Origin: Candidatus Heimdallarchaeota archaeon
GTDB lineage: Archaea > Asgardarchaeota > Njordarchaeia > Njordarchaeales > JAMOTR01
Length of the DNA: 35,040 bases
Direction of reading: 5' to 3'
Assembly: GCA_027068385.1 (NCBI GenBank)
Contig: JAMOTR010000038.1
Location: forward strand, 1 to 35,040
The notes beneath the pieces are model-generated. The model was not told the origin of the DNA. It did not search any database and worked only from the letters and a program-made list of their open reading frames with translations. Shown in pieces: positions 237-30,244 of the stretch (its first letter is position 1; the number at the start of each line of letters is the position of its first letter). The position numbers and the translations under genes were made by a program.

Positions 237-1013
237 ATGGGGAATATCATCACGAGGACGACGTTTAAGGACATTAAGAACAAGGTTCGGGAGTTCGTCG
301 GATATGACGATTTGACGGCCGAAATAAGGTCCTCGGATAAGAGGTTCGAGATTCGCGATCTCTATAGGCCTATAATTTACTACACTCGCCACTACCCCGA
401 TCTTGAGCCGATATTCTTCATCGTGCTCGCCGCGATGATGTTCCGGTTCGGTTATATGTTTCGCGACTATCTCGACACCATATTACTATTTTGGGGCATG
501 GGGCTCTTCTTAGTGATAATAGCCGTTTACTTCCTTAAGACGGACCCCAGCACGTATAAGACGGTATATTCTCTATCGCTCTACGAGGACGGAGGGGAGA
601 TCGGCACGTTCGATAAAAGGGCCTTCGAGGAGCTGGGGAAAGCGTTGGACGCCCGGGTGATGAAGTCCATAAGAATCTCGCGTGATACCCTCTCGAAGCT
701 CGAGGGTAAGCCTTTGAGCGAGATCTCTTTCGAGGACGTAGAGGGGAACAAGCGGGAGATTAAGATATACGAGAACGGCAAGGCGGAAATCCTAGGGAAA
801 AAGAGGTACAAAACGTTTCTGCCTAGTAGCAGTCTCTTCTTGAAGCCGACGAAGAAGAATAGATGCCTCGTGTACCTTACGAGGGGCCCCGAGGAGGAGG
901 AAATCGCTTACGTCGACAAAGAGACGTGTGAGAGGATCCGCAAGTTCTTGAGGGAAGCTCATAGAAAGCTCGCGGATAAGGTTAGAGAAATCATAAGCGC
1001 GGGTAGTTCGCGA
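237..1013 (+). CDS. hypothetical membrane protein (two central TM helices)
   Basis: The ORF runs from ATG 237. Hydrophobic stretches are PIFFIVLAAMMFRFGYMF and LLFWGMGLFLVIIAVYFL. The only in-frame CGA (1011-1013) lies 8 codons before the standard stop (1035-1037), and I take CGA as the end. I recognise no family. Confidence 0.45.
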
Positions 1014-1059
1014 GGTTTTTTGGGAAATGAATTTTGAATGTTCGTTCATAATCAATCGT

Positions 1060-2952
1060 ATGCCGAGACTTCTCCGTGTAAACCTAACTGACGGTACTTT
1101 TAAGTTCGAGGACATTCCTGAGGACGTTCATAAGCGCTTCTTAGGCGGATTCGGTTACATAGCGTACTATCTCTTAAAGGAGGTAGATCCTAAGGTCGAT
1201 CCTCTATCGCCCGAGAACAAGCTCATGTTCGCCCCCGGAGCCTTAGTAGGAACCGGAATACCCACGGCTTCGAAGACCATGGCCGGAGCGAAGAGCCCGT
1301 TAACGGGGACGATCATGCGCTCATCCGCGGGAGCCACTATAGGGCCCGCGTTAAAGAAGGCCGGAATAGATCTTCTAATTATAGAAGGCGCTGCCGAGAA
1401 GCCCAGCTTACTCATCATAGACGACGACCACGTGGAGATCAAGAGCGCCTCTAAGTATCGGGGAATGGACGCTATAGAGGTACAGGGGCACCTAAAGGCG
1501 GACTTCGGCACCGACTTCGCCACCGCCGCCATCGGTCCCGCGGGGGAGAACTTACTACGCATAGCCGATATAGACTCTGAGGAGCGTCAGTTCGGACGCG
1601 GAGGGCTAGGAGCCGTAATGGGCTCTAAGAAGCTTAAGGCGATACTCGTGAGGGGCACTAAGGAGGTACCCGTAGCTAAGCCCGACATGCTCAAGAAGCT
1701 CATAGCTAAGCGGGCTAAGATCATCAAGGAACACCCGGCTACGAAGGACGACATGAACTACGGTACCGCCGAGTTCTTCGACCGGATGAACCGCGAGCGC
1801 GGAACGTTCCCCTCCCGCAACCGGCAGCGGGGCTATCGGAAGACCTGCGTGGACCTAAAGGAGCCTCATAAGTGTCCCGTAGATCCTTATAACCGGGCCC
1901 CGAAGTATACCGTAGAGCTTCATCCGTGTCCCAAGTGTACGAAGCCCTGTGGACGCTACATAGAGGGAGACGATACCGAAGTCGGACACTTCCGCGTGGA
2001 GGGACTCGAGTATGAGACGATATACTCGCTAGGAGGAGCTCTAGATATCACGCACTTCCCTGCCGTAGCGAAACTACACGAGATGTGCGACAGGCTGGGA
2101 ATGGACGCTATATCCGCCGGACTCACGATAGCCCGGGCTATGGAGGCGTTCGAGAAGGGCTTCCTAAAGCCCGAGGACCTAGACGGTCTAGAGCTCACGT
2201 TCGGTAATCGGAAGGCGGCCTTAGAAGCTCTGAGGAAGATGGCTTACCGCGAGGGTAAGGTCGGGGAGCTATTAGCGGACGGAGTTAAGGTAGCCGCTGA
2301 GAAGCTCGCGAAGAAGCTCGGAACCGATGAACCGCTCAAGTTCGCGATACACGTAAAGGGTATGGAGCCTCCCGCTTACGACGTACGCGGAATCAAGGGC
2401 ATGGCGCTCGCTGTAGCCGTATCGTACCGCGGAGCCGACCACTTAACGGCTGTAGTATACGGTACCGAGCTAGTAGGAAAGCGGCGGGTGTTCGAGAACG
2501 TCGATCGCACGAAGGCCGAAGGTAAGGGATTCGAGGTGAAGATACACGAGGACCTGATGGCCGTATACGACGCTACCGGCATCTGTAAGTTCTCGAGACA
2601 CATGTTCTACCTAGAGGGCATACCCGAGCTCATCGAAGCCGTATATGGACGGAGGCCCACTAATGCCGAGCTCCTAGCTATCGGAGAGAGGATCGTGAAC
2701 GTGGCGAGGCTCTTCAACGTACGCGCTGGATTCACGCGCAAGGACGACACCCTACCGCGGCGCGTGATGCACGAGCCGATACCCGAAGGACCCTCTAAGG
2801 GCATGTATGTAAGCGAAGAGGAGCTCAACAGGATGCTCGACGAGTACTACGAGGCCCGCGGACGGAGTAAGGACGGAATCCCGCTAAAGGCTAAGCTCGT
2901 AGCCCTAGATCTAATGGAGTTCCTAGATTATGGAGTAGGATCCGAGGCTTGA
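1060..2952 (+). CDS. aor: aldehyde:ferredoxin oxidoreductase family (tungstopterin enzyme)
   Basis: I moved the start to ATG 1060 (MPRLLRVNLTDG...). AOR-family motifs are present: GRGGLGAVMGSK, CPKCTKPCGRY (CxxCxxxC 4Fe-4S ligands), YRGADH and GERIVNVARLFN. There are 13 in-frame CGG codons, no TGG and no CGA. CGG falls on family Trp positions (IA-CGG-AMEAFEKG, YYEARG-CGG). Confidence 0.9.
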   Translation: MPRLLRVNLTDGTFKFEDIPEDVHKRFLGGFGYIAYYLLKEVDPKVDPLSPENKLMFAPGALVGTGIPTASKTMAGAKSPLTGTIMRSSAGATIGPALKKAGIDLLIIEGAAEKPSLLIIDDDHVEIKSASKYRGMDAIEVQGHLKADFGTDFATAAIGPAGENLLRIADIDSEERQFGRGGLGAVMGSKKLKAILVRGTKEVPVAKPDMLKKLIAKRAKIIKEHPATKDDMNYGTAEFFDRMNRERGTFPSRNRQRGYRKTCVDLKEPHKCPVDPYNRAPKYTVELHPCPKCTKPCGRYIEGDDTEVGHFRVEGLEYETIYSLGGALDITHFPAVAKLHEMCDRLGMDAISAGLTIARAMEAFEKGFLKPEDLDGLELTFGNRKAALEALRKMAYREGKVGELLADGVKVAAEKLAKKLGTDEPLKFAIHVKGMEPPAYDVRGIKGMALAVAVSYRGADHLTAVVYGTELVGKRRVFENVDRTKAEGKGFEVKIHEDLMAVYDATGICKFSRHMFYLEGIPELIEAVYGRRPTNAELLAIGERIVNVARLFNVRAGFTRKDDTLPRRVMHEPIPEGPSKGMYVSEEELNRMLDEYYEARGRSKDGIPLKAKLVALDLMEFLDYGVGSEA

Positions 2953-2954
2953 AG

Positions 2955-2960
2955 TTTTTT
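2955..2960 (+). terminator. oligo-T tract after aor
   Basis: A T6 run lies 3 nt after the TGA stop. Archaeal RNA polymerase terminates at oligo-T. Confidence 0.35.
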
Positions 2961-3053
2961 ACACACTCGCGATTCTCATAAGTCACCACGATCGCCTCGA
3001 GATTTACTCCCGCAAAGGCCTAGGTTTTCTAGGGAAACCCGCGTATACACCAA

Positions 3054-4586: not shown

Positions 4587-4594
4587 TTAAAAAA

Positions 4595-8941: not shown

Positions 8942-8954
8942 TTATGCGTCTGCG

Positions 8955-8976
8955 CGCATAATAAAAATAAATTAAG
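8955..8976. promoter_or_regulatory. A/T-rich bidirectional promoter region between the divergent nuoL and nuoA operons
   Basis: The 51-bp intergenic spacer contains cataataaaaataaattaag, which is TATA-like on both strands and lies about 20-30 nt from both start codons (8941 minus, 8993 plus). Confidence 0.4.
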
Positions 8977-8992
8977 TTCTACGAGATCAAAT

Positions 8993-9301
8993 ATGTCGCT
9001 TATCAGCATATTTGAAGCTACCTTAGCGGGCATTATCTTCCTCCTTATCCTACGGTCCGTTCATCTCATAGGAGCACCGAAACATAGAAAGGCGGACGAC
9101 GAGACTTATGAGGCGGGATATTATCCTCTAGAAGATAAGAGGCGCCTTAGGATGCAATATGTTAGGCGGATCATGACGTTCTTAGCCGCGGACGGGTTCG
9201 CGGTCTTCGCGATATTCCTACCGTACATCGCTAAGGAGGTAGCGCTTCCGATACTAGCGGGATTAGGAATAATTCTAGGAGCGACGTTTAAGGTGAGGTG
9301 A
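8993..9301 (+). CDS. nuoA: complex-I subunit A
   Basis: A 102-aa protein with hydrophobic helices at both ends, first gene of the plus-strand operon, immediately preceding nuoB. Confidence 0.65.
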   Translation: MSLISIFEATLAGIIFLLILRSVHLIGAPKHRKADDETYEAGYYPLEDKRRLRMQYVRRIMTFLAADGFAVFAIFLPYIAKEVALPILAGLGIILGATFKVR

Positions 9302-9302
9302 T

Positions 9303-9746
9303 ATGGGCGTAGGTGATCGGATTCGCGGTCACAGCCTTCGGCCCGTTCACTTCTGTACGGGATGCTGTTCGATGGAGATGCTAGCCTCAATAAGCTCGGA
9401 GTTCGACGTAGAGCGCTACGGAGTAATGCCGATGCCCACTCCTAGGCAATCGGACGTGTACTTCATCTCCGGTCTCATAACGAAGAAAGCTCTACCGATA
9501 GCGAAGCGCGTGCGGAATCGGATGCCCGAGCCTAAGCGGGTAATAGCCGTAGGCGCTTGTGCCGCGGGCGGCGGGCTATATCGGGACTCGTACTCGGTAG
9601 TAAACGATGTGCCGAAGCATTTCCCGATAAAGGTGTTCGTGCCCGGATGTCCCCCGAGGCCGGAGGCGATCATAAAGGGTCGGGTAAAGCTACGTAAGAT
9701 ACTAATGGGGGTGGCGAAGAATGGAGGAAAGAATAAGTCCGAACGA
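9303..9746 (+). CDS. nuoB: complex-I subunit B (N2 Fe-S subunit)
   Basis: Motifs CCSMEM, GACAAGGG and PGCPP (cluster N2 cysteines). SL-CGG-P and PK-CGG-VI fall on the conserved LWP and PKWVI tryptophans. In-frame CGA at 9744-9746 is followed two codons later by TAG (9750-9752). Confidence 0.9.
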
Positions 9747-10116
9747 GCTTAGGGAGAAGATCAAAGAACTCAAAGCTAAGGGGTTTAAGAGGCCCGTAAC
9801 GATCGTAGCCGTCGATCACATAGACGAGGGAGAAATAGAGCTCATATACATGCTCCACAACGTGGAGACGAACGAGGACGCGATAATACGCGTGCGCGTC
9901 CCTAGGGATAATCCTAGAGTTCCTACGGTCACCGATATATTACCGGGATTCCGGCGGCGGGAGATGGAGACGTGGGACCTCATGGGCGTGGAGTTCGAAG
10001 GCCTTCAGAAGCCTCCCGAAGAGCTCGGAATAAAGCGCTTCCTACTCCCTCACGACCGGGACGATATACCTCCGCTAAGGAAGGATTACGTTCCTCCAGC
10101 GAGAAGGAAGAGGTGA
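9721..10116 (+). CDS. nuoC: complex-I subunit C (30 kDa)
   Basis: 131 aa, with EMETWDLMGVEFEG matching the ERE.WD..G..F signature. Its stop overlaps the nuoD ATG (gTGAtg). Confidence 0.8.
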   Translation: MEERISPNELREKIKELKAKGFKRPVTIVAVDHIDEGEIELIYMLHNVETNEDAIIRVRVPRDNPRVPTVTDILPGFRRREMETWDLMGVEFEGLQKPPEELGIKRFLLPHDRDDIPPLRKDYVPPARRKR

Positions 10117-11291
10117 TGGGTATGATGGAGTTAGGATCCCGGGAGAAGGACGGTAAGGTATATTACGACTTCATGTTAAATCGGGGTCCCCAACACCCTG
10201 GATATGGCCCCGTGAGGCTTATAGTGAAGGTTAACGGGGATTATATCGAGGACGCTCGGCTCGATCCCGGATACGTCCACAGAGGCTTAGAGAAGCTTAT
10301 GGAATACCGCACGGCACTACAGAACATACCCCTAGCCGAGAGGGCGTGCTTCATCGATTCGATAAACTCTACGCGGGCGTACGTGATGGCCGTTGAAAAG
10401 CTCGTGGGAATAGAAGTGCCGGAGTACGTTGAGGTTCTACGCACGCTAGCCGGAGAACTTAACCGTATCGTGAGCCACTTAACCCGGCTCGGTATGGCCG
10501 GAGGGGCGATGAGTCAGCACACCGCGTTCATGCGGAGCATCAAGGCGCGCGAGCGCGCTTTAATAGCTCTAGAAGCCTTGACGGGAGGGCGCTACGGAAC
10601 CGAGTTCATCATACCGGGCGGTCTCACGAACGATATGCCTCAGGATCTTCCGGATATTATAGAGCGCGAGTTCAAGAAGATCGAGGAACGCCTTAAGGAC
10701 GTAGAAACCGTGCTCCTAAAGAATAGGATCTTCCAGAGCCGCTTAATAGGGGTCGGAATACTAAAGCCCGAGGAGGCTATAGAGTTAGGCGTAACGGGCC
10801 CCTCTTTACGCGGATCCGGGGTGAGGTACGACGTGAGGGAAGCGGACGGCTACGGCTATTATAAGGAGATAGACTTCGAGCCCGTGGTGGCGGAGAAGGG
10901 GGACATATACGAGATAGGCGATTGTTACGCTAGAGTTCGGGTACGCTATCAGGAAATACGGAGGAGTATGGAGATGGTGCGTAAGCTCGTTAAGATCGCA
11001 CAGAGCTTCCCGAAGAACGAGAGGAAGATACTCGCGATTCCGAAGCCTCGCGTGGCTACGCTAACGTTCGAACCCGGTGAAGCTTACGCTAGGACCGAGC
11101 GGGCACGTGGGGAGATGTTGTATTATATCGTAGCGAAGAAGAAGGGACCTTACCCCTATAGGGTAAAGATCAAGTCCCCATCCCCCACGCTCATGCAGGC
11201 GTTCCTAAAGCTCATTAAAGGCGTACGCATAGCCGACATCCCCGCTATACATCTTAGCTTAGACGAGTGCCCAGGGGATCTGGATAGGTGA
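10116..11291 (+). CDS. nuoD: complex-I subunit D (49 kDa)
   Basis: I set the start at ATG 10116, which overlaps the nuoC stop; the longer track ORF from 9972 is out-of-frame overlap with nuoC. Motifs: GPQHP, GYVHRGLEKL, GVTGPSLRGSG, GDCYAR, PYRVKIKSPS. There are 9 CGG codons, no TGG and no CGA. Confidence 0.9.
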   Translation: MGMMELGSREKDGKVYYDFMLNRGPQHPGYGPVRLIVKVNGDYIEDARLDPGYVHRGLEKLMEYRTALQNIPLAERACFIDSINSTRAYVMAVEKLVGIEVPEYVEVLRTLAGELNRIVSHLTRLGMAGGAMSQHTAFMRSIKARERALIALEALTGGRYGTEFIIPGGLTNDMPQDLPDIIEREFKKIEERLKDVETVLLKNRIFQSRLIGVGILKPEEAIELGVTGPSLRGSGVRYDVREADGYGYYKEIDFEPVVAEKGDIYEIGDCYARVRVRYQEIRRSMEMVRKLVKIAQSFPKNERKILAIPKPRVATLTFEPGEAYARTERARGEMLYYIVAKKKGPYPYRVKIKSPSPTLMQAFLKLIKGVRIADIPAIHLSLDECPGDLDR

Positions 11292-12259: not shown

Positions 12260-12264
12260 AGGAT

Positions 12265-12678: not shown

Positions 12679-13091
12679 TCGAGGAAGTCGTGCTCCTATT
12701 AGCGGCATTTTTCGCTACGCTAGCCGCTTTAAGTCGTGACGACGTATACGCTTCGTTTAGCTTGGGTACCGCTATACTCTTCGCTTCCCTATATGTACTC
12801 GATTACATCTCGACGCTAATAGGAATCATCATCTTCGCGATTTATACCGGATCCGTGGTAGCGCTCGTGTTCATGGGATACGCGGAGGAAAAGAGCGGAC
12901 TCTCGAAGCTCGTCGCCATAGCCTTACCGCTAGCGTTCGCTATAGCCGTGGCCGTATACAAGTATATCCCCGCCGCTTCCGTGGGTCATGCTGAGGTCTC
13001 GATAGATGTACTAAAGGAGCTCATCATACCTATAGCGGGAGGTCTCGCGGCCGTAATAGTTAGCTCTCAGGAGGTGAGGAATGGTGCTCGA
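12675..13091 (+). CDS. nuoJ: complex-I subunit J
   Basis: A hydrophobic protein of about 138 aa in the canonical position between nuoI and nuoK. In-frame CGA at 13089-13091 lies just after the nuoK ATG. The standard-code frame would run on to TAA 13146-13148, overlapping nuoK by 68 nt. Confidence 0.7.
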
Positions 13092-13308: not shown

Positions 13309-13314
13309 TTTTTT
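13309..13314 (+). terminator. oligo-T tract after nuoK
   Basis: A T6 run lies directly after TGA 13306-13308 at the end of the eight-gene operon. Confidence 0.4.
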
Positions 13315-13772: not shown

Positions 13773-13804
13773 TCGTTTTCGACCATACGACGAAAAGAAA
13801 TCGT

Positions 13805-14341
13805 TTATCGGGGAAAGAGCATAGCGAGGAGTATTCCGACGATCAATTCGGCCGCGAGTATAGTTACCCGAGGTCTTAGTAACGAACAACGATCGCCTCT
13901 CGGCTCGAGGGAGTATAGGGGAAAACCGTAGATAAATATAGCTATCCCAGCGATGAATAAGGAGCCTAAGGAGAACGCTCTCGGAACTATGACTTCCCGA
14001 AAGGCCCCGTGTAACCCTGCGGAGAGTACGATTTTATCGATCTCACACCCGCTTTTAATCGTATAGCGCGACCGTAGATAGAAGTGTACTAAGAATATCG
14101 GTACGCTACGCACCCGATCATGTATTAAGCTATGAGCCTCGCCATGTAGGCCCCCTCCGAGATAATAAGCGATGGTTTCCTCTATTACTATAAAAGGAAG
14201 AACGAATGACCGGAACCTCACTCTTCTTATTAATAATATGTAGTACGAGAACAACGCTCCGAGATATATTATAAGTCTATGATCCGATACCGCTAGCACA
14301 AGAGCGGAGATTATTACGTAGAGATGGAGGAGCCTTCTCAT
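13805..14341 (-). CDS. hypothetical polytopic membrane protein
   Basis: A 178-codon ORF, strongly hydrophobic, with the His-rich motifs GGGLHGEAHSLIHD. The last sense codon is CGA (13808-13810), directly followed by TAA. Confidence 0.45.
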   Translation of the reverse strand: MRRLLHLYVIISALVLAVSDHRLIIYLGALFSYYILLIRRVRFRSFVLPFIVIEETIAYYLGGGLHGEAHSLIHDRVRSVPIFLVHFYLRSRYTIKSGCEIDKIVLSAGLHGAFREVIVPRAFSLGSLFIAGIAIFIYGFPLYSLEPRGDRCSLLRPRVTILAAELIVGILLAMLFPR

Positions 14342-15405: not shown

Positions 15406-15936
15406 ATGCATGCCTTAATGGAGCTTGAACTCTTAGAACCAGCGGTCTTAACGCGCGTGAAGCCTAGGGACGTAGAGTTCTTCTTAAGGAAGGCCCTCCA
15501 GCGGTATTCGAGAAAGAGAGGGGTAGCGCTCGACGTTTCGATAGAGTTTGAGCCCATAGAGGGTGATCTTATAGAGATCGTCGCGAGGAAGTTTCCGGGT
15601 AATGAAAGGAAGCGCGTGAAGGCTTTAAGAACGGGTATCGTAAGCGTGGAAGCGAACGTAGAACCGGTAGAAGCTCTAATGTATCTTAACGAGCCGTCCG
15701 GCCCGTTGAGTTTCTTCCGTAAGGCGTGCCACCATACGAGAAACTATCTCAAGGCGCTCGCGCGTAAGAACGTTATAAGACGCTTCGTGATACCGTGCGA
15801 GCTCACTAATCTAGCGCTCGGTTATCTAGTACCGCCCCGGTTCCTCGGAAGGAAGGAAGAGAGTATACGGCTATGGCGCGACGATAGGGGTTTCCGGCAC
15901 GTGTTCGGTCTAGCTAGGATCTCGATAACGTTACGA
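15406..15936 (+). CDS. hypothetical protein
   Basis: The ORF runs from ATG 15406 and its codon usage resembles that of its neighbours. In-frame CGA at 15934-15936 lies 7 codons before the standard TAA (15955-15957). I recognise no family. Confidence 0.4.
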
Positions 15937-15959
15937 ATTACCCCCGACGTTTCGTAATC

Positions 15960-16982
15960 ATGGAGTCGCCTAGACCTTTAGATACCGTAAGGTATATAGA
16001 AGAGCAGAAGGCGGTGAAGCTCATAAATCAGCGTAAGCTCCCGGAGACTTTTGAATACTTTACCGCTAAGACCGTAGAGGACGTTGCTTATGCTATAAAG
16101 AACATGATCGTACGCGGTGCTCCGGCGATAGGTATCACGGCCGCTTACGGCATGAAACTATTCGCGGACACATACAAAGGAAAGGACTTCGAACACGACG
16201 CTAGGAGAGCTCTGGAATTATTGAAGCGTACTAGACCCACGGGTAAGAACCTCTTCCGGGCGCTGAACCACATAGAGAAGGCGATAGATAAGGGGCCCGA
16301 GGCCGTAATAAAAGCCGCTGATGAGGTGGTGGAGAAGGAAAAGGAATATGAGAGGCGCATAGCAGATCGGAGCCTAAAGTTCGTGGAGATGATCTCGGAG
16401 AAGCTAGGAAAGAAGGAAATCACGTTCCACACGCATTGTAACGCCGGTCGTTTAGCCACTTACGGTCTCTTCGGTACGGCTACAGCCCCGATATATGTAG
16501 CACATCGGAACGGATATCGCGTACGGGCGATCGTGGATGAAACCAGACCTGTGCTTCAAGGCGCCCGTCTCACGGCCCGGGAACTTAGCGTTGCGGGAAT
16601 AGATACCACCGTGATACCCGACACCGCTATAGGGTTAGCGTTGATGAAGGGCTTAAGCGACGTGGTCGTCGTAGGGGCCGATCGCGTGTGTAAGGATCGG
16701 TCCGTGACGAACAAGATAGGAACGTATGTGCTCGCCACGCTCGCTAAGAGGCATAACGTCCCGTTCGTCGTAGTAGCCCCTACGTCCACGTTCGACGAGT
16801 GTACCTTCGACAATCCACCGCCCATCGAGGAACGCGACGAGCGCGAGGTGCGTTACATACGTGACGTGAAGATCGTTCCGGACGGTGCGAGAGTGTTGAA
16901 CTACGCGTTCGACATCACCCCCGCTGAACTAATAAACTACGTGATAAGCGAAAAAGGGATTCACGAGGTGAACCCTATATGA
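15960..16982 (+). CDS. aIF-2B-like family isomerase (methylthioribose-1-phosphate or ribose-1,5-bisphosphate isomerase)
   Basis: Motifs VRGAPAIG, RPTGKNLF-CGG-AL (RPTAVNLFWAL), HCNAG, DETRPVLQGARLTA-CGG-EL (RLTAWEL) and NKIGTY. I cannot distinguish M1P from R15P specificity by eye. Confidence 0.8.
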   Translation: MESPRPLDTVRYIEEQKAVKLINQRKLPETFEYFTAKTVEDVAYAIKNMIVRGAPAIGITAAYGMKLFADTYKGKDFEHDARRALELLKRTRPTGKNLFRALNHIEKAIDKGPEAVIKAADEVVEKEKEYERRIADRSLKFVEMISEKLGKKEITFHTHCNAGRLATYGLFGTATAPIYVAHRNGYRVRAIVDETRPVLQGARLTARELSVAGIDTTVIPDTAIGLALMKGLSDVVVVGADRVCKDRSVTNKIGTYVLATLAKRHNVPFVVVAPTSTFDECTFDNPPPIEERDEREVRYIRDVKIVPDGARVLNYAFDITPAELINYVISEKGIHEVNPI

Positions 16983-17287
16983 TTATCACGATCATCACCA
17001 CGGTCTCATCCAAGAACGAAGCCGAAAGGATTGCGGAGATATTGTTAAAAGATCGCTTAGCCGCGTGCGTTACGATAATACCGGCTACCTCTATGTACCG
17101 GCGGAAGGGAAAGATCGCGAAGGAGGACGAGTGCGTGATCCTAATAAAGACCTCTAAGAGGCGTTATACGGAGCTCATGAAGAGGCTCAAGGAGATACAT
17201 CCATACGAGCTTCCCGAGATCCTCATACTTAAGCCCGACGCGCTAGAGGAGTACATTAAGCGGGTAGAAGAAAGCACCTCGGAGCGA
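16979..17287 (+). CDS. cutA: divalent-cation tolerance protein CutA
   Basis: SMY-CGG-CGG-KGKI matches the CutA S.YWW.G motif. Also HPYELPEI, and YIK-CGG-V matching YL.W. Ending at CGA 17285-17287 gives 102 aa, the normal CutA length. The standard-code frame would run to 17482 straight through the antisense tRNA-Ser gene. Confidence 0.85.
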
Positions 17288-17297
17288 GTTTTTGTTA

Positions 17298-17385
17298 TGG
17301 CGCCGGGGCCGGGATTCGAACCCGGGCGGGCGAGATGCCCACGGGATCTCAAATCCCGCGCCTTTCCTGGCTCGGCCACCCCGGC
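17298..17385 (-). tRNA. tRNA-Ser (anticodon UGA), CCA encoded
   Basis: The minus-strand sequence is GCCGGGGTGGCCGAGCCAGGAAAGGCGCGGGATTTGAGATCCCGTGGGCATCTCGCCCGCCCGGGTTCGAATCCCGGCCCCGGCGCCA. It has a 7-bp acceptor stem and a 5-bp anticodon stem CGGGA/TCCCG with loop TTTGAGA (anticodon TGA). It also has a long variable arm (GGGC..GCCC), the T-loop GTTCGAATC and discriminator G. Confidence 0.9.
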
Positions 17386-17478
17386 TCTCTTAACTGAAGG
17401 ACCCGACGTTAATATGCTTTATATCTTCAACGGGACCGAGGGTAAGAAGAACCTTGAGGAATTAATATTTGTTATAAG

Positions 17479-17955: not shown

Positions 17956-17979
17956 ATATTTCTTAAACTCTTTTTACTC

Positions 17980-18222
17980 ATGAAGCCGGACCTCGCTAAG
18001 TTAGTGGTATGTATAAAGTGCGGCTCCTCGGATTTTGAGTTAGTACCCGTAAAGAAGGAGGGAGAAGAGATCATCGAGGGACTCATGATATGTAAGAAGT
18101 GCGGTTATACATACGCAATCGTGGATTCGATTCTACGGACAATAGACGACGAAGTGAGGAGAAAAACCCTCGAGAAATATAGGGAATTCATACCCGAAGA
18201 ACTAAAAAAGAAGGCTCGTCGA
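17980..18222 (+). CDS. Trm112-like zinc-ribbon protein
   Basis: CIKCGSS...CKKCGYTYAIVDSILRTIDDE resembles the Trm112 fold motif (C..C ... C..C..YPI.DGIP.ML). In-frame CGA at 18220-18222 gives an 80-aa product. The standard-code tail to 18309 would overlap the convergent gene. Confidence 0.45.
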
Positions 18223-19286: not shown

Positions 19287-19294
19287 TTACTTCG

Positions 19295-20728: not shown

Positions 20729-20806
20729 AAAGAATCGATAGCGCGGGAATAAAGAAGGAGTTCGGTAATTGAAAAGATAGAACTTCGATCGGTATTTAGT
20801 CGGAGA

Positions 20807-23800
20807 ATGAGTAAAAGTCCGAGCATAAATGCCACAAACAATATTTTCGAGGCCTTGTACACGGCTCTGTTTCACGACGTCGAGAAGGTGTTCAGAATAA
20901 GGAAGTACGGAGGGGTCGTTCCCACGAAAGATAAACCTAGCTTGGGAGTCGGAACGGAGGAATCAAAATTCATTAATGAAATGGGGAAGAACGCTCACCA
21001 AGTTCTTAATAGCGTTTATGGTGGACCGGGTGGGCGCATCGATACTAATGACGTACATAAAGCGTTGTCGAGCAACCCCGATCTCTTAAGGATCGTCTTC
21101 TATAGGACGAATCTAAACCCGGAAATAGGAGAGTTGAAGCCCATTTACGACGGAAGCGCCGCGGGGAGCACGAGGGGTGGACAAATTCATATCTACCATA
21201 ACAACAACCCGAGCTCCGGTAGATACGCCCAGTTAGAGATACTATCGCTTTACTCTTTAATAAACGGGACGAAGGACCTCGATCCGAGGAAGCTCGTGCA
21301 CATATATTATACCCTTAAGAAGTACGGAAATAATAAGAGGCTCTTATCGGCCGAGGTGGAGCTCGTAGGGAATCCGACCGTGGCGTATAACAACATCTAC
21401 GTCAAGGGATCCCAGGAGTACGAGGACCTCCTTAAGTATAACCCTAACGTACGGGCGAATAAGGACGTTTATCCGTTGGGACCGTTCGTGGAGCTATACA
21501 CGTACCTATACGTCTCGGACGCGTTGAGGGCCAAGGATAACGACCTAATATCGTTAAAGCCCGTGCGGTCTTACGGCTCGATATTCAAAGCGGAGGACGT
21601 ATCCGAACCTTTCACTCCCCTATCGATCCATACGACGCTCGGCGCCGCGATTCAGGCGGCCTCGATGTACTATTCGATCGACGCGAGTAACGCGTTCAAG
21701 AATTCGAAAGTCGCCTTATATCACGTCGTGTTCTCGGGTTATAAGGATCTCATATCTCGCTTGCCGTACACGTTTCACCAAGCCGAAAGTATGTATTTGA
21801 GATTCACGCGCGCGATAAACTTGATACTTTACGGCCTTCTACGCGCCCTGAGCTTAGCGATCCGGCTTAATTATCTCAACGCAGCGAACGTGAGCGATCC
21901 GGAGTTCGAATACGTCCACGATTACGTAGCCCTAATACGCTCGCCCGCGGACATGTTCATCCCGATGTTCGTAAGTAACTCAAGGGGGACGTATGTGGAC
22001 GAAAAGGAGGTGAAGAAGGTCGTGGATACGACACTCATAGACCTTAGTAAGAGGCTCGAGGAGGTTCAGATAGAGCTCGAGGCCGCGGGTGAGAGGAGGA
22101 GGACGTCGCTTTCCGTGGTCCCCAAATACATATCCCTCGTGGGGAACGTCGAGATCACGAACGCGGCCTCGTTTAGGATCAAAACTAGGGGTAAAAGTAA
22201 TTTTGTGGAGCGGAACTTGGGTGGGTTCTCGTATACCATGGTTAACCCCACGGAATACGATGAGATGCTCTTAAGGGCGCGCGTGAGGATACCTACGGTC
22301 ATAAACGCTGGGGCGATAAAGAGTAGCACGGAGTTCTTCGTCCTCAAATTATATCGCGATAAGAGCGACGTCTATCCCGCGATATACGCGTACGAGAAAG
22401 GAAAAGTCTCACAGATCACGAAGAAGTTCGACGACGGAAAGGATATCTCGGAGGTAGAAAAGTACGAACTAGTCGATATAGTAGTGATCTTATACGCTCC
22501 CGAGGCGGAGGGACCCGAGGGAATAGATTACCTAGGGATCTTCGAGAAGCGGCTAGAAGCCGCGGACAAGCTGAGGAACGACGTACAAAGGATGACGAAA
22601 AACGTCGAGCTCAAGAAGAAGAAGGAGGCCGTCGGGATCGTGGATCTATTCGTGATCCCCTCTTATAGGCCAGTAGACCTAGAACAAAAGTATAAGAGGG
22701 ACGATAAGGAGCCTTACGTACTACATCGGAGGTTCGCGTTTCCCGAGCCCGCATATGGGGTGATGCGCTTGAAGAAGTTCGATAAGATATACGTGAGCGG
22801 AATCCCTAAGGACTTCTTTAAGAATGTGAGCCCAGTCCATTACTTAGCGTTCTTAGAGGAGGCCTTAATGTATCGGGGACTAACTATTCTACCTTCCACG
22901 CTCGCCCCCTTGAACCCTACGATCATATACGTGGCTAGGGACGAAAGCTACTATCTAACGGATACAGCGGGCGACTTCTCTAGGGTAATCTCTCTCTTAA
23001 AATCGCGGGACGAGGCGCGTTATCCCGTAGAAGTAATCCTAGAGGCTACGAGCGTGAAGAAACCGATATACTACGTGAAAGCTAATACCGACGGGTTCAT
23101 AGAGCTGAGGCCCGTGAGGGCAGGGAACGACTACTTAATACCCCCGAGGGCCGTCGCGTTCTCGATGCCCATAGGACTAAAGGAGCTCGCTGAAGCCTTA
23201 ACCCGGGGGAGGAAGATCCTAGAGGAATCAAATAAGGGGAAGGTTAATCTGGGCGCTATAATAAGATACCTAAAACCTTACTCTAAGCGGTTCATCCTAG
23301 ACTTCTTCGAGAGAATTAAGGAGGAGACGAAGAAGGAGCCGGAGAACAGGAATTATACGGAGGCTATAAAAGGTGAGGAAAAGTTCGACGAGTTCCTGAA
23401 CGAGAGCCTATACATACTCACGCGCCTCGATAACTTAAGTAACGTGGGAATAGACTCTCAGAAGCTCTACGAGATCGTCGGAAAACCACTCATTAACTTC
23501 GCGTACGCATTAACGTCGAAGGACGGTGACGACCTCGCGTTCTTAAATATATTAAAGGATTTGAGCGGGGAAAAGGGTAAAAGAAAGATAGAGATTATGC
23601 TCGACATCATCGCGTCGTTCTTACTAGAGATCGAGAAATACGAGGGAGGCTCGATAAAGCTCGACGTATTAAAGTATCTCAAGAGCGCCACGCTCATAGC
23701 GAGGGACACTAAAAACTTCGACGAAGCGTTGAATTACGCGATAAAAAGGATCGAGCCGTACTATAAGCGCGATTATAAGGGACTAAAGAGGGAGCTTATG

Positions 23801-23956
23801 CGCCTTCAGAGGATACTTCTACTTACTTTAGCGATCAAGATGATGGAGGAACACGACAAGAACTTCGCGCCCGATCCCAACGGAGATAAAGACTTCGTGA
23901 AGAGGTTCCTAACACTCGCTATAGCGTCTAGACTCGCGGATGTATCTAGGAGCTAA
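20807..23956 (+). CDS. Cas10-like large subunit candidate (N-terminal HD motif, degenerate cyclase motif, helical C-terminal region)
   Basis: A 1049-aa uninterrupted ORF with 10 CGG, no TGG and no CGA. The N-terminal [15 protein letters not shown] (HD at 20873-20878) resembles the Cas10 LLHDIGK HD motif. [11 protein letters not shown] (22634-22660) sits where the GGDDLF palm motif would be, but is degenerate. The last ~250 aa are predicted helical. It lies directly upstream of Cas7- and Cas5-like genes, with a 30-nt spacer. The family assignment rests on context and short motifs only. Confidence 0.5.
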
Positions 23957-23986
23957 AGTTCTTTTTCTTTATTCATAGTTCTTCGT

Positions 23987-24814
23987 ATGTCACAACGTAG
24001 CGAAGCTCAAGAGGTTTTTGTAAAGATCAAAGGGGCGTACGTCCTTCATTTAAAACTTGAAGTCGAGAACATGCTCATTGGGGGCGTAGCTAGGTTCAAT
24101 AGATACGTACATCTCGAGACGATAAAGGACGCGAGGGGTAATCCCTATATACCCGCTTCTTCCGTTAAAGGGCGCCTTAGGATGCTTATAGAGACCTCTT
24201 ATGGACTCGCCGGAATAACCTCGCCCGACGCCTTGACGAAGAGCGCGGACGAGAGGTATACTTGGAGCAAACTCAAGGAGAGGATACCTAAGGATAAGAG
24301 GAAGGACGCATTTTGCCTCTTAGCGCTCTTCGGAGGATTAAACGACGTGGGTCCTACGAGACTAATATTTCACGATCTACGCTTCGAAGGCACCCCGGTG
24401 ACGGAGATAAAGCCGGAGAACATGGTCGATAGGTTCCGCGGAACGGCCGAGAACCCAAGGCTCGTGGAGCGTGTGAGCGGGGTGGCTAGGGGTAGGCTCT
24501 TAATATTAGACGTGGAGCCCGAAACGGAAGTAGAGGATAAAGAACTACGGGAGTCCGTCTGTCCGCACGGAATAAGGATGCTCAAAAACGGCTTTAAGCT
24601 CCTTAAGCTCTTAGGTCTCGGGCGCGGTGTGAGCAGGGGATACGGTAAGATCAAGAATATAATAATAGAGAAGATCGAGAGGATCGACGCGGGAGGGTCC
24701 GTGAGCGTAATATACGAGTATAAAGGAAGCGAAGATAACATAGAGGAGGCGTTCGACGAATTAATACAAAACATGTGTCCGGATAGGGCTCAGGAGAAGA
24801 GGGGTGACGCGTGA
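23987..24814 (+). CDS. cas7: Cas7-family RAMP protein (Csm3/Cmr4-like)
   Basis: Motifs: GNPYIPASSVKGRLRMLIE (the PyIPGSS.KG.lR RAMP signature), LALFGG, TRLIFHDLRF, EIKPENMVDRFRGTAENPRLVERV (idR.tg.a...l...E) and the C-terminal glycine-rich loop LGLGRGVSRGYGKI. Confidence 0.75.
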   Translation: MSQRSEAQEVFVKIKGAYVLHLKLEVENMLIGGVARFNRYVHLETIKDARGNPYIPASSVKGRLRMLIETSYGLAGITSPDALTKSADERYTWSKLKERIPKDKRKDAFCLLALFGGLNDVGPTRLIFHDLRFEGTPVTEIKPENMVDRFRGTAENPRLVERVSGVARGRLLILDVEPETEVEDKELRESVCPHGIRMLKNGFKLLKLLGLGRGVSRGYGKIKNIIIEKIERIDAGGSVSVIYEYKGSEDNIEEAFDELIQNMCPDRAQEKRGDA

Positions 24815-25680
24815 TGAATAAATCGAAAACTATAAAGGCGTTTATTTTGGAACCCTTAGGCCCTTTCTACGGATACATCCCCACGAGTTTAACGCTCTAT
24901 AGAGCGTTGTTAGCGCTAGAAAAGAGCGGCCTAATAGACCTTAAGGACGGCTTCTCCATCGCTGGAATCTTCGCATACGACCCTAAGAACGATCTCTTGT
25001 ACTTACCGTCGGATTCCCGGATTCTAGCGCTCAAAGACGCGACCATCGATAATTATAAGATAAACGTCCCGGAGAGCCTTTACGTTCCGTTCGAGTCCTC
25101 CATGAAGTCTTACTTTGCGCTCGTGAAGGGGAAGAACGAGTATGAGGTAAGGGTCGAATACCCCTTCTTACTCACACTTTCCGCTAGGATAAACGTCTCT
25201 CGCTCCGCGTTTACGTCGTATGGAACCGGGCGCGTAGCATATAATCGCATGTATCTATCGAGGTTTAAACGGGCGATCTTAACGGACCTAGATAAGAACA
25301 TCATAAGGCTCTTAGGCGAGTTTGGGGTCGGTAACTATAAGTCCATAGGGGGCGGGGCGTTCGAGATAATAGGCGAACGCGAGGTGGAGATAAAGCCCAT
25401 TAATGTACAAAAGAAGCTCGAAGGTTACGACCTCGAGTACTCGCCCCTCGACTTCCCCCTAAATTACGGGATCGGGAACGTGCGGGAGATGCGTACGAGG
25501 ATATTCGACGGATCCTCTAGGATTAAGATAGTGAGGTACTTAGCGGGGGGATTAATAAAGAAAGACGCCCTCAAAGACGACCGGCCTCAGGCGTTTCGGG
25601 GGAGTACGTTCCCGCGTATAAAAGGAAACGATTGTCCACGCGCCCGCTTAATAAGGGGATTCCCATTTCTAAAGAAACGA
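24814..25680 (+). CDS. cas5: Cas5-family RAMP protein (Csm4/Cmr3-like)
   Basis: ATG 24814 overlaps the cas7 TGA (TGATG). The N-terminal AFILEPLGPFYGYIPTSLTLYRALL resembles Csm4 (l.p.sp.h.G ... sDTLfsAl). Also FSIAGIFAY, LLYLPSD and the glycine-rich loop FGVGNYKSIGGGAFEI. In-frame CGA at 25678-25680 ends it 45 nt before the convergent kae1 stop; the standard frame runs to 25737 and would overlap kae1. Confidence 0.6.
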
Positions 25681-25725
25681 TCAGCACGCGCACCTATCAT
25701 CATTTTTCAGACCCGTGGAGGCTCA

Positions 25726-26733
25726 TCATCTCGGTAGAATTTCTGGTGGCGGTAGTTCAAATTCTTCCATCCTCCGTTTAGGAATCACGTAACTTTCCTC
25801 GATCTTTAGAGGCTCCATTCCCGCCTTATACATCTCTAACGCTACATACGCGATCATCGCACCGTTATCCACGGCAAGCTCCGGGGATACGATACCGTGC
25901 TTTATGTTCCGATCCTCCGCCATCTCCTCGAACATTTTCCTTAAGCGCTTGTTCCTCGCAACTCCGCCCACAAGTAGAGCCTCTTTTTTACCCGTGAACC
26001 CTAGCGCCCTCTCTAATACTTCTATTACCATAGCGAAGGCCGTCTCTTGTAGCGAATAAGCGACGTCCTCGATCGGAACTCCGGACTCTAATAATTCTAT
26101 AGCCGCCTTTAGGAGACCGCTAAAGCTTAAGTTCATGCCCTTCACGACATAAGGAAGATCGTAGTAACGCGACCCCTTCTGAGCGAAGCGTTCTATATGA
26201 GGTCCTCCTGGGAACGGTATCGTGATCCCTAAGATCCTAGCAGCCTCGCGCGCGAAGGTATCTAATAGATTCCCCAACCCTATATCAAGCGTCTCTCCGT
26301 ACACTACGTATCTTCTTCCCTCGCGACCGACCACGGCCGTGTTTCCCCCGGAGAGATACAACGCTATAGGCTCCTTAAATCCGTGCTCCCGACGCCCTAT
26401 CTCGATGTGAGCTACAGCGTGATTTACCCCGTATAGAGGCACTTCTAACACGGAGGCTAAGAATCTAGCGGCCGTAGCTACGGTCCTTAAACAAGGCCCT
26501 AGACCCGGCCCACGGGAGAAACCTATTGCTACTACGTCCGTTCCCAACGTATCGAACGCCTTCTCTACGAGCTTCGGTAACCTTTGGGCTATAAACTGAG
26601 CGGACTCGCGCGGATGTATACCTCCGGAGGGGGAAGTATATTGTTCCCTCAAGTTTAAGAGTAGCTCACCGTCTAGGCTAAAAGCCCCTACTCCGGCCGT
26701 ATGAGCGGTACCCTCAAGACCTAAAACGTACAT
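25726..26733 (-). CDS. kae1: tRNA N6-adenosine threonylcarbamoyltransferase Kae1
   Basis: ATG 26733 (MYVLGLEGTAHTAGVGAF...), HPRESAQF, YGVNHAVAHIE, LYLSGGNT, LVGGVARN and DNGAMIA. At 335 aa it is the normal Kae1 length. aaggagagg lies upstream of the ATG. Confidence 0.9.
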   Translation of the reverse strand: MYVLGLEGTAHTAGVGAFSLDGELLLNLREQYTSPSGGIHPRESAQFIAQRLPKLVEKAFDTLGTDVVAIGFSRGPGLGPCLRTVATAARFLASVLEVPLYGVNHAVAHIEIGRREHGFKEPIALYLSGGNTAVVGREGRRYVVYGETLDIGLGNLLDTFAREAARILGITIPFPGGPHIERFAQKGSRYYDLPYVVKGMNLSFSGLLKAAIELLESGVPIEDVAYSLQETAFAMVIEVLERALGFTGKKEALLVGGVARNKRLRKMFEEMAEDRNIKHGIVSPELAVDNGAMIAYVALEMYKAGMEPLKIEESYVIPKRRMEEFELPPPEILPR

Positions 26734-26742
26734 TTCAAAAAT

Positions 26743-27531
26743 TCGTTCTCCTCTCCTTCTTAGCTTCTCGTATATCTTCGGGCTCCGTACTATCATAAGT
26801 ATATTAAAGAACATGGCCTCGATCGCGAACGCGAAGGACCTCCGATCGAAGAACCCTCCGAAGGTCCGGAGGACGAAGGAGGGTATGTAGAACACGAGGG
26901 CGAGGGCGGATAAGATCCTGTAGAGCGTGACGTATCCCGCGGATCCCAGAACCCCTATAACGAACACGATCACGCCCATGAGCTGTAGGGAAGAGGCATA
27001 TGGGCCCGAGACGTGAAGCGATATCGTCGCTCCGGAGATGAAGTATCCTACGCTCGAGAGGGCTCCGAGAATTATCGGTACATAATAAGATAATAGAGCT
27101 AAGAGCGCTAATAACGTCCCTAAGAGCCGAAGACCTACCCCTACGCCTAAGACCATCTGAAGGGACTCGGTGAACCTGCCCTGGGCGATCGCTTCCTTCA
27201 ACGTAGGACCTAAGGATATCACGCGTAAGGCTAACACCGACGCGCTAATGCCGGCCCCGACCGAGATCATGAACCTAGCGGGAAACACAGCGTTCGTGAG
27301 GTATATAAGGCCTCCGATAAGGACGGAGAAGCCTCCCAAGTATGCGATGAAGTACAAGACGTTGAGTATAGTCGTCCCTTGTTCCTCCGTAATATACCCG
27401 TACGTCTTCAAATAAGCGACTATCTGAGCGTATATACCCGGATCCCCTACAGCGTTTACGAGCACCAAGATTATCCCTCCCAGGATGGCGAAGATTGGTT
27501 GAAGGATGTATTTGGGCCTTTTCACGATCAT
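26743..27531 (-). CDS. hypothetical polytopic membrane protein
   Basis: 262 codons, about 7 hydrophobic helices. It ends at in-frame CGA 26743-26745, 9 nt before the kae1 ATG. The standard-code track fuses it to Kae1 as a 601-aa ORF. Confidence 0.5.
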
Positions 27532-27562
27532 AATAATAAAAAGATGATTAAATACGATCGCG

Positions 27563-28888
27563 TCGGATATAACCCAAGCGCGTGAGTTCCCTTTCTAGCT
27601 CGCTTAACGATATCTCGGATTCTAATCCCCGTTTCTCTAGAGCGACGCGAAACTCCTCGCTTTCCCTCGCGATTTCCTCTTTCGTATGTCCATCGAGAGC
27701 CCCTTTAAACGCGTCTAGCATAGCCTTCACGCCCGCTTTGATGCCCTTTGGATGTCCCACTATCGCGCGACCGACGAGGTATATGACGTCCCTAAACCCC
27801 ATGTTTATCGCGTCATAAGCTAGTGAGGGAGTTATTCCGGATCCTATTAGCGGTATCGTCTTTCCTATAGGACCTTCGCCCGCTAAAGCGTTATAAGCGC
27901 TCCGAACTGTGTATAAGTCCTTCTTATGAGAACCTACGGGAGGAGGTATCTGTGCTATGTCTGCTCCTGAGATACGTTCGAACAGCGCTAACACGGCCGC
28001 GTTAAACCCTCTCGGACTATCTATTAGCGCGGAGAATCCGGAATTCCTAGTGTATACTGGGACGTCGAACTCCCTTACGACTTCGTTTATCTCGTCGTAA
28101 CTCGCGTACATCGAGGGAATAAGCACGCCTAACCTCTCCACGTCTAATTTTTCTAAGGCCTTAAGAACCGTGCTTAACGTCCTCTTTGGGTCCCTAGATC
28201 CTATATTTAAGAAATAGAAGACGTACTCGTTCTTCGACTTTTTAATTTCGTTGAGGATCCTCTTAGCTCTGTCTATCCTCTTCGAGTACTTCGGATCTAG
28301 GAGCTTCTCGTCGTCCGCTATCATATGAACGCCCGCTTCGGCTACGTCGCGCGCTAGCTTAGCGTATTGATCCGAGGTGAGACCTAGAGAGGGCTTCATG
28401 ATGAACCCTAAATAGGGCCCTGGGCCCCGGATCTTTCTAAGATAATCGGACCTCAAAGGACCCCCGAACCTCTTTAGTATATTCTCCGGAAACTCTATCG
28501 ATGTGATCTTTATGCTACGCACGGACGCGGAATCGAGCAGATCACCCGCGATATATACGAGTATATCGTCGAACGAAATATCTTTGGAGAGATGTACGGT
28601 AGGGTATTCTATTTCTACGATGCCTATATCGACGATGCTCTCGCCTCCATTATGATCGCTCACCACCTTCGATCCTATTGGATCGACGTGCCTCACTACG
28701 GCGCCGTATTTCTTTATGTCCTCCTTGTCGATGCCCAGAACCGAAAATATAACGTCCGTCACTCCGGCTATGCTCAAACTCTGTTCGTCCGCGAGGTGAC
28801 TAGCTATCTCATATAACTTCCCTCTATTATCGGGAGTCGTTTCGACCAAATAGCGCACTCTTATCGTACCGTTTTTCTTAATGGGCAC
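27563..28888 (-). CDS. RuBisCO large-subunit-like protein (divergent, form IV-like; non-carboxylating)
   Basis: It aligns by eye to archaeal form III RbcL. FPENILKRFGGP, YLGFIMKPSLGLTS (the KPK.G motif with the second Lys changed to Ser) and GVHMIADDEKL (DF.KDDE with the carbamylated Lys changed to Ala, GCG at 28316-28318). Also LIGSGITP, VGHPKGIKAGVKA and VALEK-CGG-G (ALEKWG). The start is tentatively GTG 28888, 9 nt after the phosphomutase CGA. The end is at CGA 27563-27565, 4 codons before TAA. Confidence 0.7.
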
Positions 28889-28897
28889 GAAAAAACA

Positions 28898-30244
28898 TCG
28901 TTTAGCTTCTTTTATTATTTCCTCGAGCTTTCTCTTAAACTCCTCCGCGCGCTCCTTAGAGCGAGCTTGAATGTATATGCGAAGCTTCCCTAATTCCGTT
29001 CCCGACTTCCTTACTAGTATCCGCTCACCGTCTCCCAACACTTTTATTCCGTCTATGAGGTCCTTCTTCCGCTTGTATTTGTGGCTCCGCTCCAGTAGTT
29101 GGTGCATGAGGCGCATATATACAATATCTATGCGGCTCGGATCTATGCGGTACGTCCTTCTTATACCGTAATACTTCGGTAACCTAGAAAGACGGTCTTC
29201 GAGACCCTCTTCGACCACCTTCGCGAGTATGCATGCCGAAAGTATACCGTCGTACCGCGCCCCATAAGAGGGTATCATATGTTTCCACGGTTCGGTGGCC
29301 ATGAGGACGTCGTTAATCATAGAGTAGACGATGTCCGGAAGGTAACCGAGCTTGTAGCGGTATACCTTTAGTCCGTATTTCTTAGCTATCTCTTCCGCTA
29401 CGTCTAGAGTATCCACCGAAAGTACCACAACGCGCCTTCCGCGACGCCTTTTAGATACCTCCTCGAGTATTAATGAGGCCGTATAGCTTTGGTCCACGAA
29501 CCTTCCCCTCGGATCTATTAAAGCTAGCCTATCACCATCGCCGTCCAGAGCCATAGCCGGCACGCCCAAACTCCTCGCTATGTTCATAGTATCCTTAAGG
29601 TTCTCCTCGCTAGGTTCGGGCATACGCCCGGGGAAGAATCCGTCCGGTTGGGCGTTCACGTCTATAACCTCGGCCCCTAGTTCCCTCAGAGCCCTCGTAG
29701 CTATCACACCAGCGGCTCCATTAGATCCATCTATAATTACCCTAATCTCCTTCTCCAACGGTTCTACAAATGAGAATAGATGCTCTAGATATTCGTCCAC
29801 GACTTGGTCGGAGATGTCCACATACTTCGGTTCAAGCCTCCGGTCGAACCTCGGTTCAGGCTCCTTCCGATAGTCCTGAAGCATATTTTCTTGTATAGAG
29901 GTAAGCTCGCGCCCGTTCACGAAGATCTTGAACCCGTTATACTCTGGGGGGTTATGGGATGCCGTAACGAGCACCCCTACACCGTTTAACTTCCCAGAAG
30001 CGAAGGCTACTACGGGATAAGGGGCGAGACCGGCATAATATACTTCCGCCCCCATCGCCCCTAAACCGGACATCAACGCACTCGCGAGCACGGGAGACGT
30101 CTTGCGGGAATCTATGCCCACGACTACTTTAGAAGCATTATCGAACGCCTTAGCGATCGTAACGCCCAACTTAAACGCCATATCTGTGGTGATGTTCTTA
30201 CCGAAGATGCCTCTAATGCCCGAAGTACCGAAACGTAGACTCAT
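28898..30244 (-). CDS. alpha-D-phosphohexomutase superfamily enzyme (phosphoglucomutase / phosphomannomutase / possible phosphopentomutase)
   Basis: ATG 30244 (MSLRFGTSGIRG). Motifs: TASHNPPEYNGFK (active-site Ser loop), ALDGDGDRLALID (Mg site) and GTELGKLRIY. Ending at CGA 28898-28900 gives 448 aa, the normal size. The track start at 30358 would overlap the divergent gene. Confidence 0.85.

Follow-up and report, generated by a model that had tools for sequence, protein, structure and literature searches.

The window analysed here is a stretch of 35,040 nucleotides from Candidatus Heimdallarchaeota archaeon (contig JAMOTR010000038.1, positions 1 to 35,040). It is 51% GC and its genes are archaeal. 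They include a Nuo operon, the A/V-ATPase B subunit (AtpB), L35Ae, Kae1, a Trm112-like protein and type III CRISPR RAMP proteins, as well as a phosphosugar mutase beside a RuBisCO-like protein, OTCase, CutA and Pelota. An earlier note on this DNA proposed that CGA, an Arg codon in the standard code, works here as a stop. We argue that CGA is very probably a translation-termination codon in this lineage. It would be one half of a recoding of the CGR codons that has made CGG the principal Trp codon and CGA the stop used most often after TGA.

The 13 CGA codons listed in the earlier note are all in frame, 7 on the plus strand and 6 on the minus strand. They are the first terminator in 12 of the 37 complete genes of the window, one of which has a tandem. 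The 34 long standard-code open reading frames (ORFs) of the window contain 26 in-frame CGAs, namely these 13 and 13 others. Each of these others is either in a spurious 5' extension or in a tail that comes after a first CGA. The note was right that no in-frame CGA falls inside a real gene, but its list of the remaining ones was incomplete. It lacked codons 9, 16, 28 and 31 of ORF 9972-11291 (the NuoD extension), codons 26 and 34 of the mutase extension, codons 29 and 38 of the atpB extension, codon 14 of the L35Ae ORF and codon 99 in the Trm112 tail. For comparison, the window holds 1,641 CGA trinucleotides (903 on the plus strand and 738 on the minus strand).

The region we analysed is the window plus ~19 kb of flanking contig (10 kb was fetched on each side), or 54,149 bp. 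The first terminator of its 59 genes is TGA in 28 cases, CGA in 25, TAA in 4 and TAG in 2, and so the canonical stops are also in use, as had been claimed. TAA and TAG are rare (6 of 59) despite the over-representation of TA. The genes that end in CGA include essential ones, such as PGK, aIF2-beta, TFB, Pelota, GatD and NuoB. Over 16,787 sense codons, CGA is found 0, 461 and 706 times in the three codon phases, which agrees with the note's contrast between no internal in-frame CGA and hundreds out of frame. The canonical stops have the same kind of distribution (TGA 0/371/178, TAA 0/499/476 and TAG 0/896/219). Position-specific base frequencies predict ~117 in-frame CGAs where none is observed. 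The same analysis of a contig (L021) used solely as a standard-code control found 35 CGAs spread over 5,906 codons. That contig came from a search with AtpB and belongs to a GC-rich unrelated archaeon. We found no CGA in the stretches of the encoded proteins that align to Pfam, NCBIfam or PDB entries.

Two related species allow the gene ends to be compared. Species B is represented by loci L005 and L019 of sample ERZ27262679, with ~37-94% amino-acid identity to the window and the same gene order. L019 was obtained through a homologue search with the RuBisCO-like protein, which returned one relative. The 30 genes of species B end in TGA (15), CGA (11) or TAA (4). Species C is represented by L006 and L007, the latter being contig CAYPVV010000158.1 of GCA_964414255.1. 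L007 has the gene order of the window, and the identities are 92% for AtpB, 54% for DUF711 and 57% for the Trm112-like protein. Close relatives were not found in the GTDB genome collection with an exact 40-mer, DUF711 peptide patterns or a degenerate AtpB pattern. The IF-2B-like protein retrieved just a 47%-identical Bathyarchaeia contig from that collection. Among the matches listed for AtpB, the window's own excepted, the best homologues were ~70% identical or less, and the species C fragment on L007 was absent from that list. One of them, L020 (ENA ERZ22666087 k127_36635345), is from another GC-rich unrelated archaeon. Its AtpB has 704 residues with an internal duplication of ~230 residues, which is probably an assembly artefact.

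The CGA codons sit where the proteins should end. The first CGA is 0-36 residues past the last residue matched to a Pfam, NCBIfam or PDB homologue in CutA, NuoB, DUF711, the mutase, the RuBisCO-like protein, Pelota, aIF2-beta, an HD hydrolase, PNP, PhoU, GatD and TFB. It is also at, or a few residues from, the end of the orthologue. In ten orthologue sets CGA is swapped with a canonical stop (TGA, TAG or TAA), either in the very same column or only a few residues away. The window has CGA and species B has TGA in CutA, Pelota (same column), a rhomboid protein, the mutase and a 262-aa membrane protein. The swap goes the other way in NuoK (same column) and NuoH, which have TGA in the window and CGA in species B. 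A 177-aa membrane protein (p178) has CGA in the window and TAA in species B. No species C sequence was available for these eight. The Trm112-like protein ends in CGA in the window and species B and in TAG, at the same column, in species C. DUF711 ends in CGA-CGA, CGA-TGA and TAG respectively. CGA is kept by both species in 8 further orthologue pairs, and the sequence after it differs in length and content. As judged from these comparisons, genes of this lineage end at CGA, and CGA is interchangeable with the canonical stops at orthologous ends. In evolution it behaves as a synonym of TGA.

It is worth going through the individual ends. On the plus strand, a 258-aa membrane ORF (237-1013) has an in-frame CGA at 1011-1013 that is followed by ggTTTTTTgg. 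The next gene is an aldehyde:ferredoxin oxidoreductase (AOR) that starts at 1027 or 1060. This end was judged without an orthologue. NuoB ends at 9744-9746, one codon before a TAG, and its Pfam Oxidored_q6 match stops at residue 128 of 147. NuoJ (138 aa) ends at 13089-13091, which is 8 nt past the NuoK ATG at 13081. Its CGA column is identical in species B (L005), and the tails after the CGA are unrelated in sequence. A 176-aa protein (15406-15936) ends at 15934-15936, and species B again has CGA in the identical column (...RISITL#) with a tail of different length and sequence. The CGA of CutA (102 aa) is at 17285-17287 and is followed by a T5 tract. The Pfam CutA1 match reaches residue 97, and the C-terminus is ...WVEESTSE-CGA in the window versus ...WVEESTK-TGA in species B. 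The Trm112-like protein (80 aa), which NCBIfam Trm112_arch matches over residues 1-51, ends at 18220-18222. A cas-like protein of 288 or 289 aa, depending on whether it starts at the 24814 ATG or the 24811 GTG, ends at 25678-25680, with CGA at the same column in species B. Pelota (34417-35040, plus strand) is cut by the end of the window and its CGA terminator is 403 nt beyond it. Its eRF1_3 domain runs to residue 341, and codon 343 is the CGA. The stop is at the same column in both species, ...YQID-CGA in the window versus ...FEIE-TGA in species B.

On the minus strand, p178 has its CGA at 13808-13810 with a TAA directly next, and in species B the orthologue runs one residue further, to a TAA. 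The tandem CGA-CGA of the DUF711 protein (355 aa), at 18216-18221, was placed by orthologue comparison. The window has ...APVL-CGA-CGA, species B ...APVL-CGA-TGA and species C ...APVLTR-TAG. The DUF711 and Trm112-like genes are convergent, and the TCGA palindrome at 18219-18222 stops both of them back to back. A similar arrangement is found beyond the end of the window, where the convergent genes for GatD and a 535-aa protein both end at the palindrome CGATCG (41150-41155 on the window scale, L012 17551-17556). The 262-aa membrane protein ends at 26743-26745, 9 nt upstream of the Kae1 ATG at 26733. Its end is ...KLRRRGE-CGA versus ...KLRRRR-TGA in species B, where it is a separate gene of 259 aa. 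The RuBisCO-like protein (441 aa) ends at 27563-27565, and the NCBIfam rubisco_III profile is matched to position 425 of 426 by residue 419. The orthologue in species B has a CGA end as well, though not at the same position. The phosphomutase (448 aa) ends at 28898-28900, followed by TgTTTTTTc, and its alignments with PDB phosphosugar mutases stop no more than ~2-5 residues short of the CGA. In species B it is a separate 445-aa gene that ends in TGA.

Three single standard-code ORFs contain two unrelated sets of domains with a CGA between them. These are the mutase with the RuBisCO-like protein (936 aa), the membrane protein with Kae1 (601 aa) and the rhomboid protein with a PD-(D/E)XK nuclease. 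In species B all three are separate genes with canonical stops, which is the arrangement the earlier note had expected for the first two. In the 601-aa ORF the Pfam TsaD match begins at residue 296, and species B has a separate Kae1 of 336 aa. One can imagine a scenario where CGA still has a sense meaning, Arg or Trp, but is very rare and tolerated only close to C-termini, with the long ORFs as genuine fusion proteins. Short extensions would be harmless, and 8 of the 12 window genes have a canonical stop within 1-19 codons after the CGA. However, all three fusions have the CGA at the junction, and 3-4 codons further on comes a start codon whose position corresponds to the N-terminus of that gene in species B, where it is separate. 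Orthologues carry canonical stops at or beside the same columns. Except where another gene overlaps, the tails of different species also match in neither length nor sequence.

The overlapping genes are themselves a problem for a sense codon. A tRNA-Ser(UGA) gene is found on the minus strand at 17298-17385 (ARAGORN; 55 bits with the Rfam tRNA model), 10 nt past the CGA of CutA. Read-through of CutA would add 64 codons and cross this gene antisense. Species B has the same layout in L005 with TGA as the stop. Read-through of Pelota would likewise run into a tRNA-Lys gene. The tRNA genes within the 54 kb are Ser(UGA), Glu(CUC), Leu(UAA) and Lys(UUU). An unannotated C/D box sRNA, recognised by its box motifs, is on the minus strand at 25681-25729 and fills the gap between the stop of Kae1 and the CGA stop of the cas-like gene. 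Its order is C box (ATGATGA), a 12-nt guide, D' box (CTGA), C' box (ATGATGA), a second 12-nt guide and D box (CTGA), and the guides are gcctccacgggt and taggtgcgcgtg. The C box is the tandem TGATGA stop of Kae1 and the D box abuts the cas-like CGA. The sRNA is ~90% conserved in L019 of species B although the adjacent protein is merely 37% identical. An Rfam scan gave no match for the sRNA and found the tRNA alone.

The tail past the cas-like CGA was the only one conserved between species that was not otherwise explained. We considered it as evidence of read-through and rejected it, since it is this sRNA on the opposite strand. Conservation past the Trm112-like CGA is explained instead by the antisense coding region of DUF711.

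Oligo-T is the archaeal transcription terminator signal. A tract of T5 or longer occurs within 18 nt downstream of 10 of the 25 CGA ends (40%) and 12 of the 28 TGA ends (43%). After out-of-frame CGAs the figure is 7 of 1,167 (0.6%; Fisher p = 4e-14). These tracts past the CGAs, like the tRNA and sRNA genes, count against a rare sense codon, a scenario that we consider extremely unlikely. The stop swaps, the separate genes, and the RNA genes and oligo-T past CGA all support CGA as a stop, as first proposed.

CGG must be considered together with CGA. The 16,787 codons include 264 in-frame CGGs (~1.6%) and 20 TGGs. Invariant Trp positions are encoded by CGG in OTCase (DVW), AtpB (LGW), the mutase (W-ILVR) and AOR. 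Invariant Arg positions are encoded by CGT, CGC or AGG in OTCase (STRTR), the ATPase (GRRGYP, VRGQ and LSRLM) and the mutase (DGDGDR). One conserved Trp is still encoded by TGG, which therefore remains a Trp codon. The earlier note had described the CGN box as a copy of the UGN box, with CGA read as UGA, CGG read as UGG, and CGU and CGC left as Arg. At the level of codon meaning the conserved Trp and Arg positions agree with that description.

The base composition is unusual. TpG and CpA are twofold depleted (odds 0.5), and CpG and TpA are enriched (~1.37). This pattern holds for each of the three codon phases as well as for intergenic DNA, and it recurs in species B and, more weakly, in species C. 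This is the reverse of the usual signature of CpG loss. Many TGA stops sit within Shine-Dalgarno-like GGTGA(T) motifs or in ATGA or GTGA stop-start overlaps (for example at 9299, 10114, 11289, 12257 and 31494), where the TGA that remains is under other constraints.

A depletion of TpG with an excess of CpG could also come from an error in sequencing, assembly or base calling by which T is read as C before G. However, CpA is depleted symmetrically and TpA is enriched, which would not be expected from a T-to-C error, and ATG and GTG codons are intact. The window matches a 206-kb ENA metagenome contig (ERZ27262635:k141_146051) with 21 substitutions, mostly synonymous transitions. The CGA ends are unchanged across 11 independent contigs from at least 5 runs and from different assemblers, and CGA ends are found in three species. 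Since the sequence recurs in independent contigs and the strain polymorphisms are mostly synonymous, it must be natural and the CGA features are not assembly errors. We regard an artefact as next to impossible.

Another way to keep the standard code is C-to-U editing of mRNA as in plant organelles, which would turn CGA into a UGA stop and CGG into UGG for Trp. Unedited plant organelle genes, as in mitochondria, have an identical apparent DNA pattern. There the editing is site-specific and uses dedicated factors. Here every in-frame site would have to be edited, ~1.6% of all codons (264 CGG and 25 CGA in 16,787), while the 1,167 out-of-frame CGAs and 855 out-of-frame CGGs of the same mRNAs are spared. 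We know of no mRNA C-to-U editing in archaea. Because ~2,000 out-of-frame sites must be spared against 289 in-frame sites in the same transcripts, editing is very unlikely. A relative is also reported to have a candidate tRNA(CCG) without Arg identity (Melnykov 2026, bioRxiv 10.64898/2026.04.02.715157).

If CGA is a stop, there must be a route by which it came to be one. The tRNA steps that we propose derive from established decoding rules and the tRNA data of Melnykov (2026). The loss of tRNA-Arg(UCG), which reads both CGA and CGG, would have been needed before CGG could change meaning. CGG would now be decoded by a tRNA(CCG) that carries Trp. As archaea lack an inosine-34 tRNA-Arg, CGA would be left without a decoder. 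The vacant A site at CGA would then be resolved by peptide release, most likely through an aRF1 that tolerates either C or U in the first position when GA follows. Genome-wide avoidance of TpG and CpA may have favoured the replacement of TGG by CGG and of TGA by CGA, but that this pressure drove the replacement is speculation.

The release step could take another form. CGA might be unassigned, so that the ribosome stalls without a tRNA and the chain is freed by rescue, for example splitting by Pelota/ABCE1 followed by peptidyl-tRNA hydrolysis, with no recognition by aRF1. This scenario has the same DNA evidence behind it as a stop read by aRF1, and that evidence cannot separate the two. It also avoids a cellular stop codon with C in the first position, which has no precedent that we know of. 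No tRNA(UCG) is reported in the relatives (Melnykov 2026). Against this, ~42% of genes end in CGA, including PGK, aIF2-beta, TFB, GatD and NuoB. CGA ends are kept in 8 orthologue pairs and freely swapped with TGA elsewhere, which is how a synonymous stop behaves and not a costly stall. Canonical back-up stops just downstream are no commoner after CGA than after TGA. For these three reasons we favour direct recognition by aRF1, and think stalling and rescue unlikely, though they deserve to be kept in view. The full proposal is that an altered or duplicated aRF1 reads CGA directly, making it the first non-organellar stop without an initial U, and that it arose together with CGG as Trp under TpG/CpA avoidance. 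We hold this about as strongly as we doubt it.

Several points weigh against CGA as a terminator and should be stated together. We infer termination at CGA from DNA alone, and the release route in this lineage, aRF1 or ribosome rescue, is a step further from the data. eRF1 and aRF1 read a first-position U specifically, and to our knowledge no stop codon outside organelles lacks it. Release by aRF1 would thus require a change without precedent. Since each gene was cut at its first CGA, the zero count of internal CGAs is partly circular, and for this reason the argument must be carried by the independent tests. One genome is sampled over 54 kb, a second over 26 kb and a third over 2.4 kb, and a genome-wide statement depends on the preprint (Melnykov 2026).

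Some other features of the locus are worth recording. The plus-strand stretch 20807-25680 encodes a 1049-aa protein without a family match, a Csm3/Cmr-like RAMP (23987-24814) and the 288-aa cas-like protein. From its gene content this is probably a type III CRISPR-Cas effector module. On the minus strand (27563-30244) the RuBisCO-like protein, which is type III-like, is directly downstream of the phosphopentomutase-like mutase. An IF-2B-family gene (ribose-1,5-bisphosphate isomerase-like) is nearby at 15960-16982 on the plus strand. The predicted functions of these three genes suggest a nucleoside/AMP salvage pathway. A 431-aa ORF (L008 348-1643, minus strand), located ~8-9 kb upstream of the window, combines an EamA-type transporter with a ligand-binding (RAM) domain of the Lrp/AsnC type. 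We considered whether it hides an additional stop codon, but there is no unusual codon at the junction. It is apparently a genuine fusion. The ORF ends at CGA codon 400.

A CGA stop would be the first sense-to-stop change known outside organelles. It would affect ~40% of the genes of a free-living archaeon from hydrothermal vents, in a group that figures in the discussion of eukaryote origins. If true, it means that termination of the eRF1/aRF1 type can gain a stop codon, possibly in violation of the "U first" rule. It is also a natural example of the splitting of a codon box without an inosine tRNA. There is a practical consequence too. About 40% of the proteins that standard gene callers predict for these genomes come out fused or extended, and Arg is written in place of every Trp. 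This affects the public protein databases and phylogenomic matrices in which the genomes are used, and examples of affected database entries have 601, 898, 393 and 167 aa.

The closest known system is a related one. Melnykov (2026) inferred CGG-to-Trp by two methods in two hydrothermal-vent assemblies placed in Njordarchaeales. L007 of species C comes from one of these assemblies, and we take the taxonomic name of the lineage from the preprint. The preprint reported no CGA in HMM domains, no tRNA(UCG) and a tRNA(CCG) without the Arg identity element A20. It could not infer stops, and it raised CGA as a possible stop while leaving the question for a separate study. In the literature searched we found no other paper that links this group to a code change. 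Our lineage belongs to the same family as that of the preprint, and the two are alike in their ~50% GC, the dominant CGG codon for Trp, the lack of CGA in recognisable domains and their related sequences. What is added here is that orthologues, overlapping RNA genes and oligo-T place CGA at gene ends, and that it makes up ~40% of stops. We argue that the meaning of CGA, which the preprint left unresolved, is now answered from the gene ends, and that a terminator which the preprint anticipated, and did not demonstrate, is supported by them.

In bacteria with CGA and CGG reassignments (Shulgina and Eddy 2021, PMC8629427), CGA either becomes Trp together with CGG or is kept as Arg by an inosine tRNA. 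They resemble the present case in that CGR codons are recoded, CGG becomes Trp and the loss of tRNA(UCG) lets CGG split from CGA. They differ in the fate of CGA, which is Trp in the Absconditabacteria and remains Arg through tRNA(ICG) in the Firmicute cases. The bacterial genomes are AT-rich and the codons are rare, whereas here GC is ~51%, CGG makes up 1.6% of codons and CGA terminates.

The other comparison is with organelles. We know of accepted sense-to-stop changes only in a few mitochondrial codes. AGA and AGG are stops in vertebrate mitochondria (table 2), TCA is a stop in the mitochondria of Scenedesmus obliquus (table 22) and TTA in those of Thraustochytrium (table 23). As in our lineage, a sense codon without a decoding tRNA is confined to gene ends, and AGA and AGG are Arg codons like CGA. 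However, organelle codes belong to tiny genomes with release factors of the bacterial type, and a handful of genes is affected. Here the host is a free-living archaeon with a system of the aRF1 type, and presumably hundreds of genes are affected.

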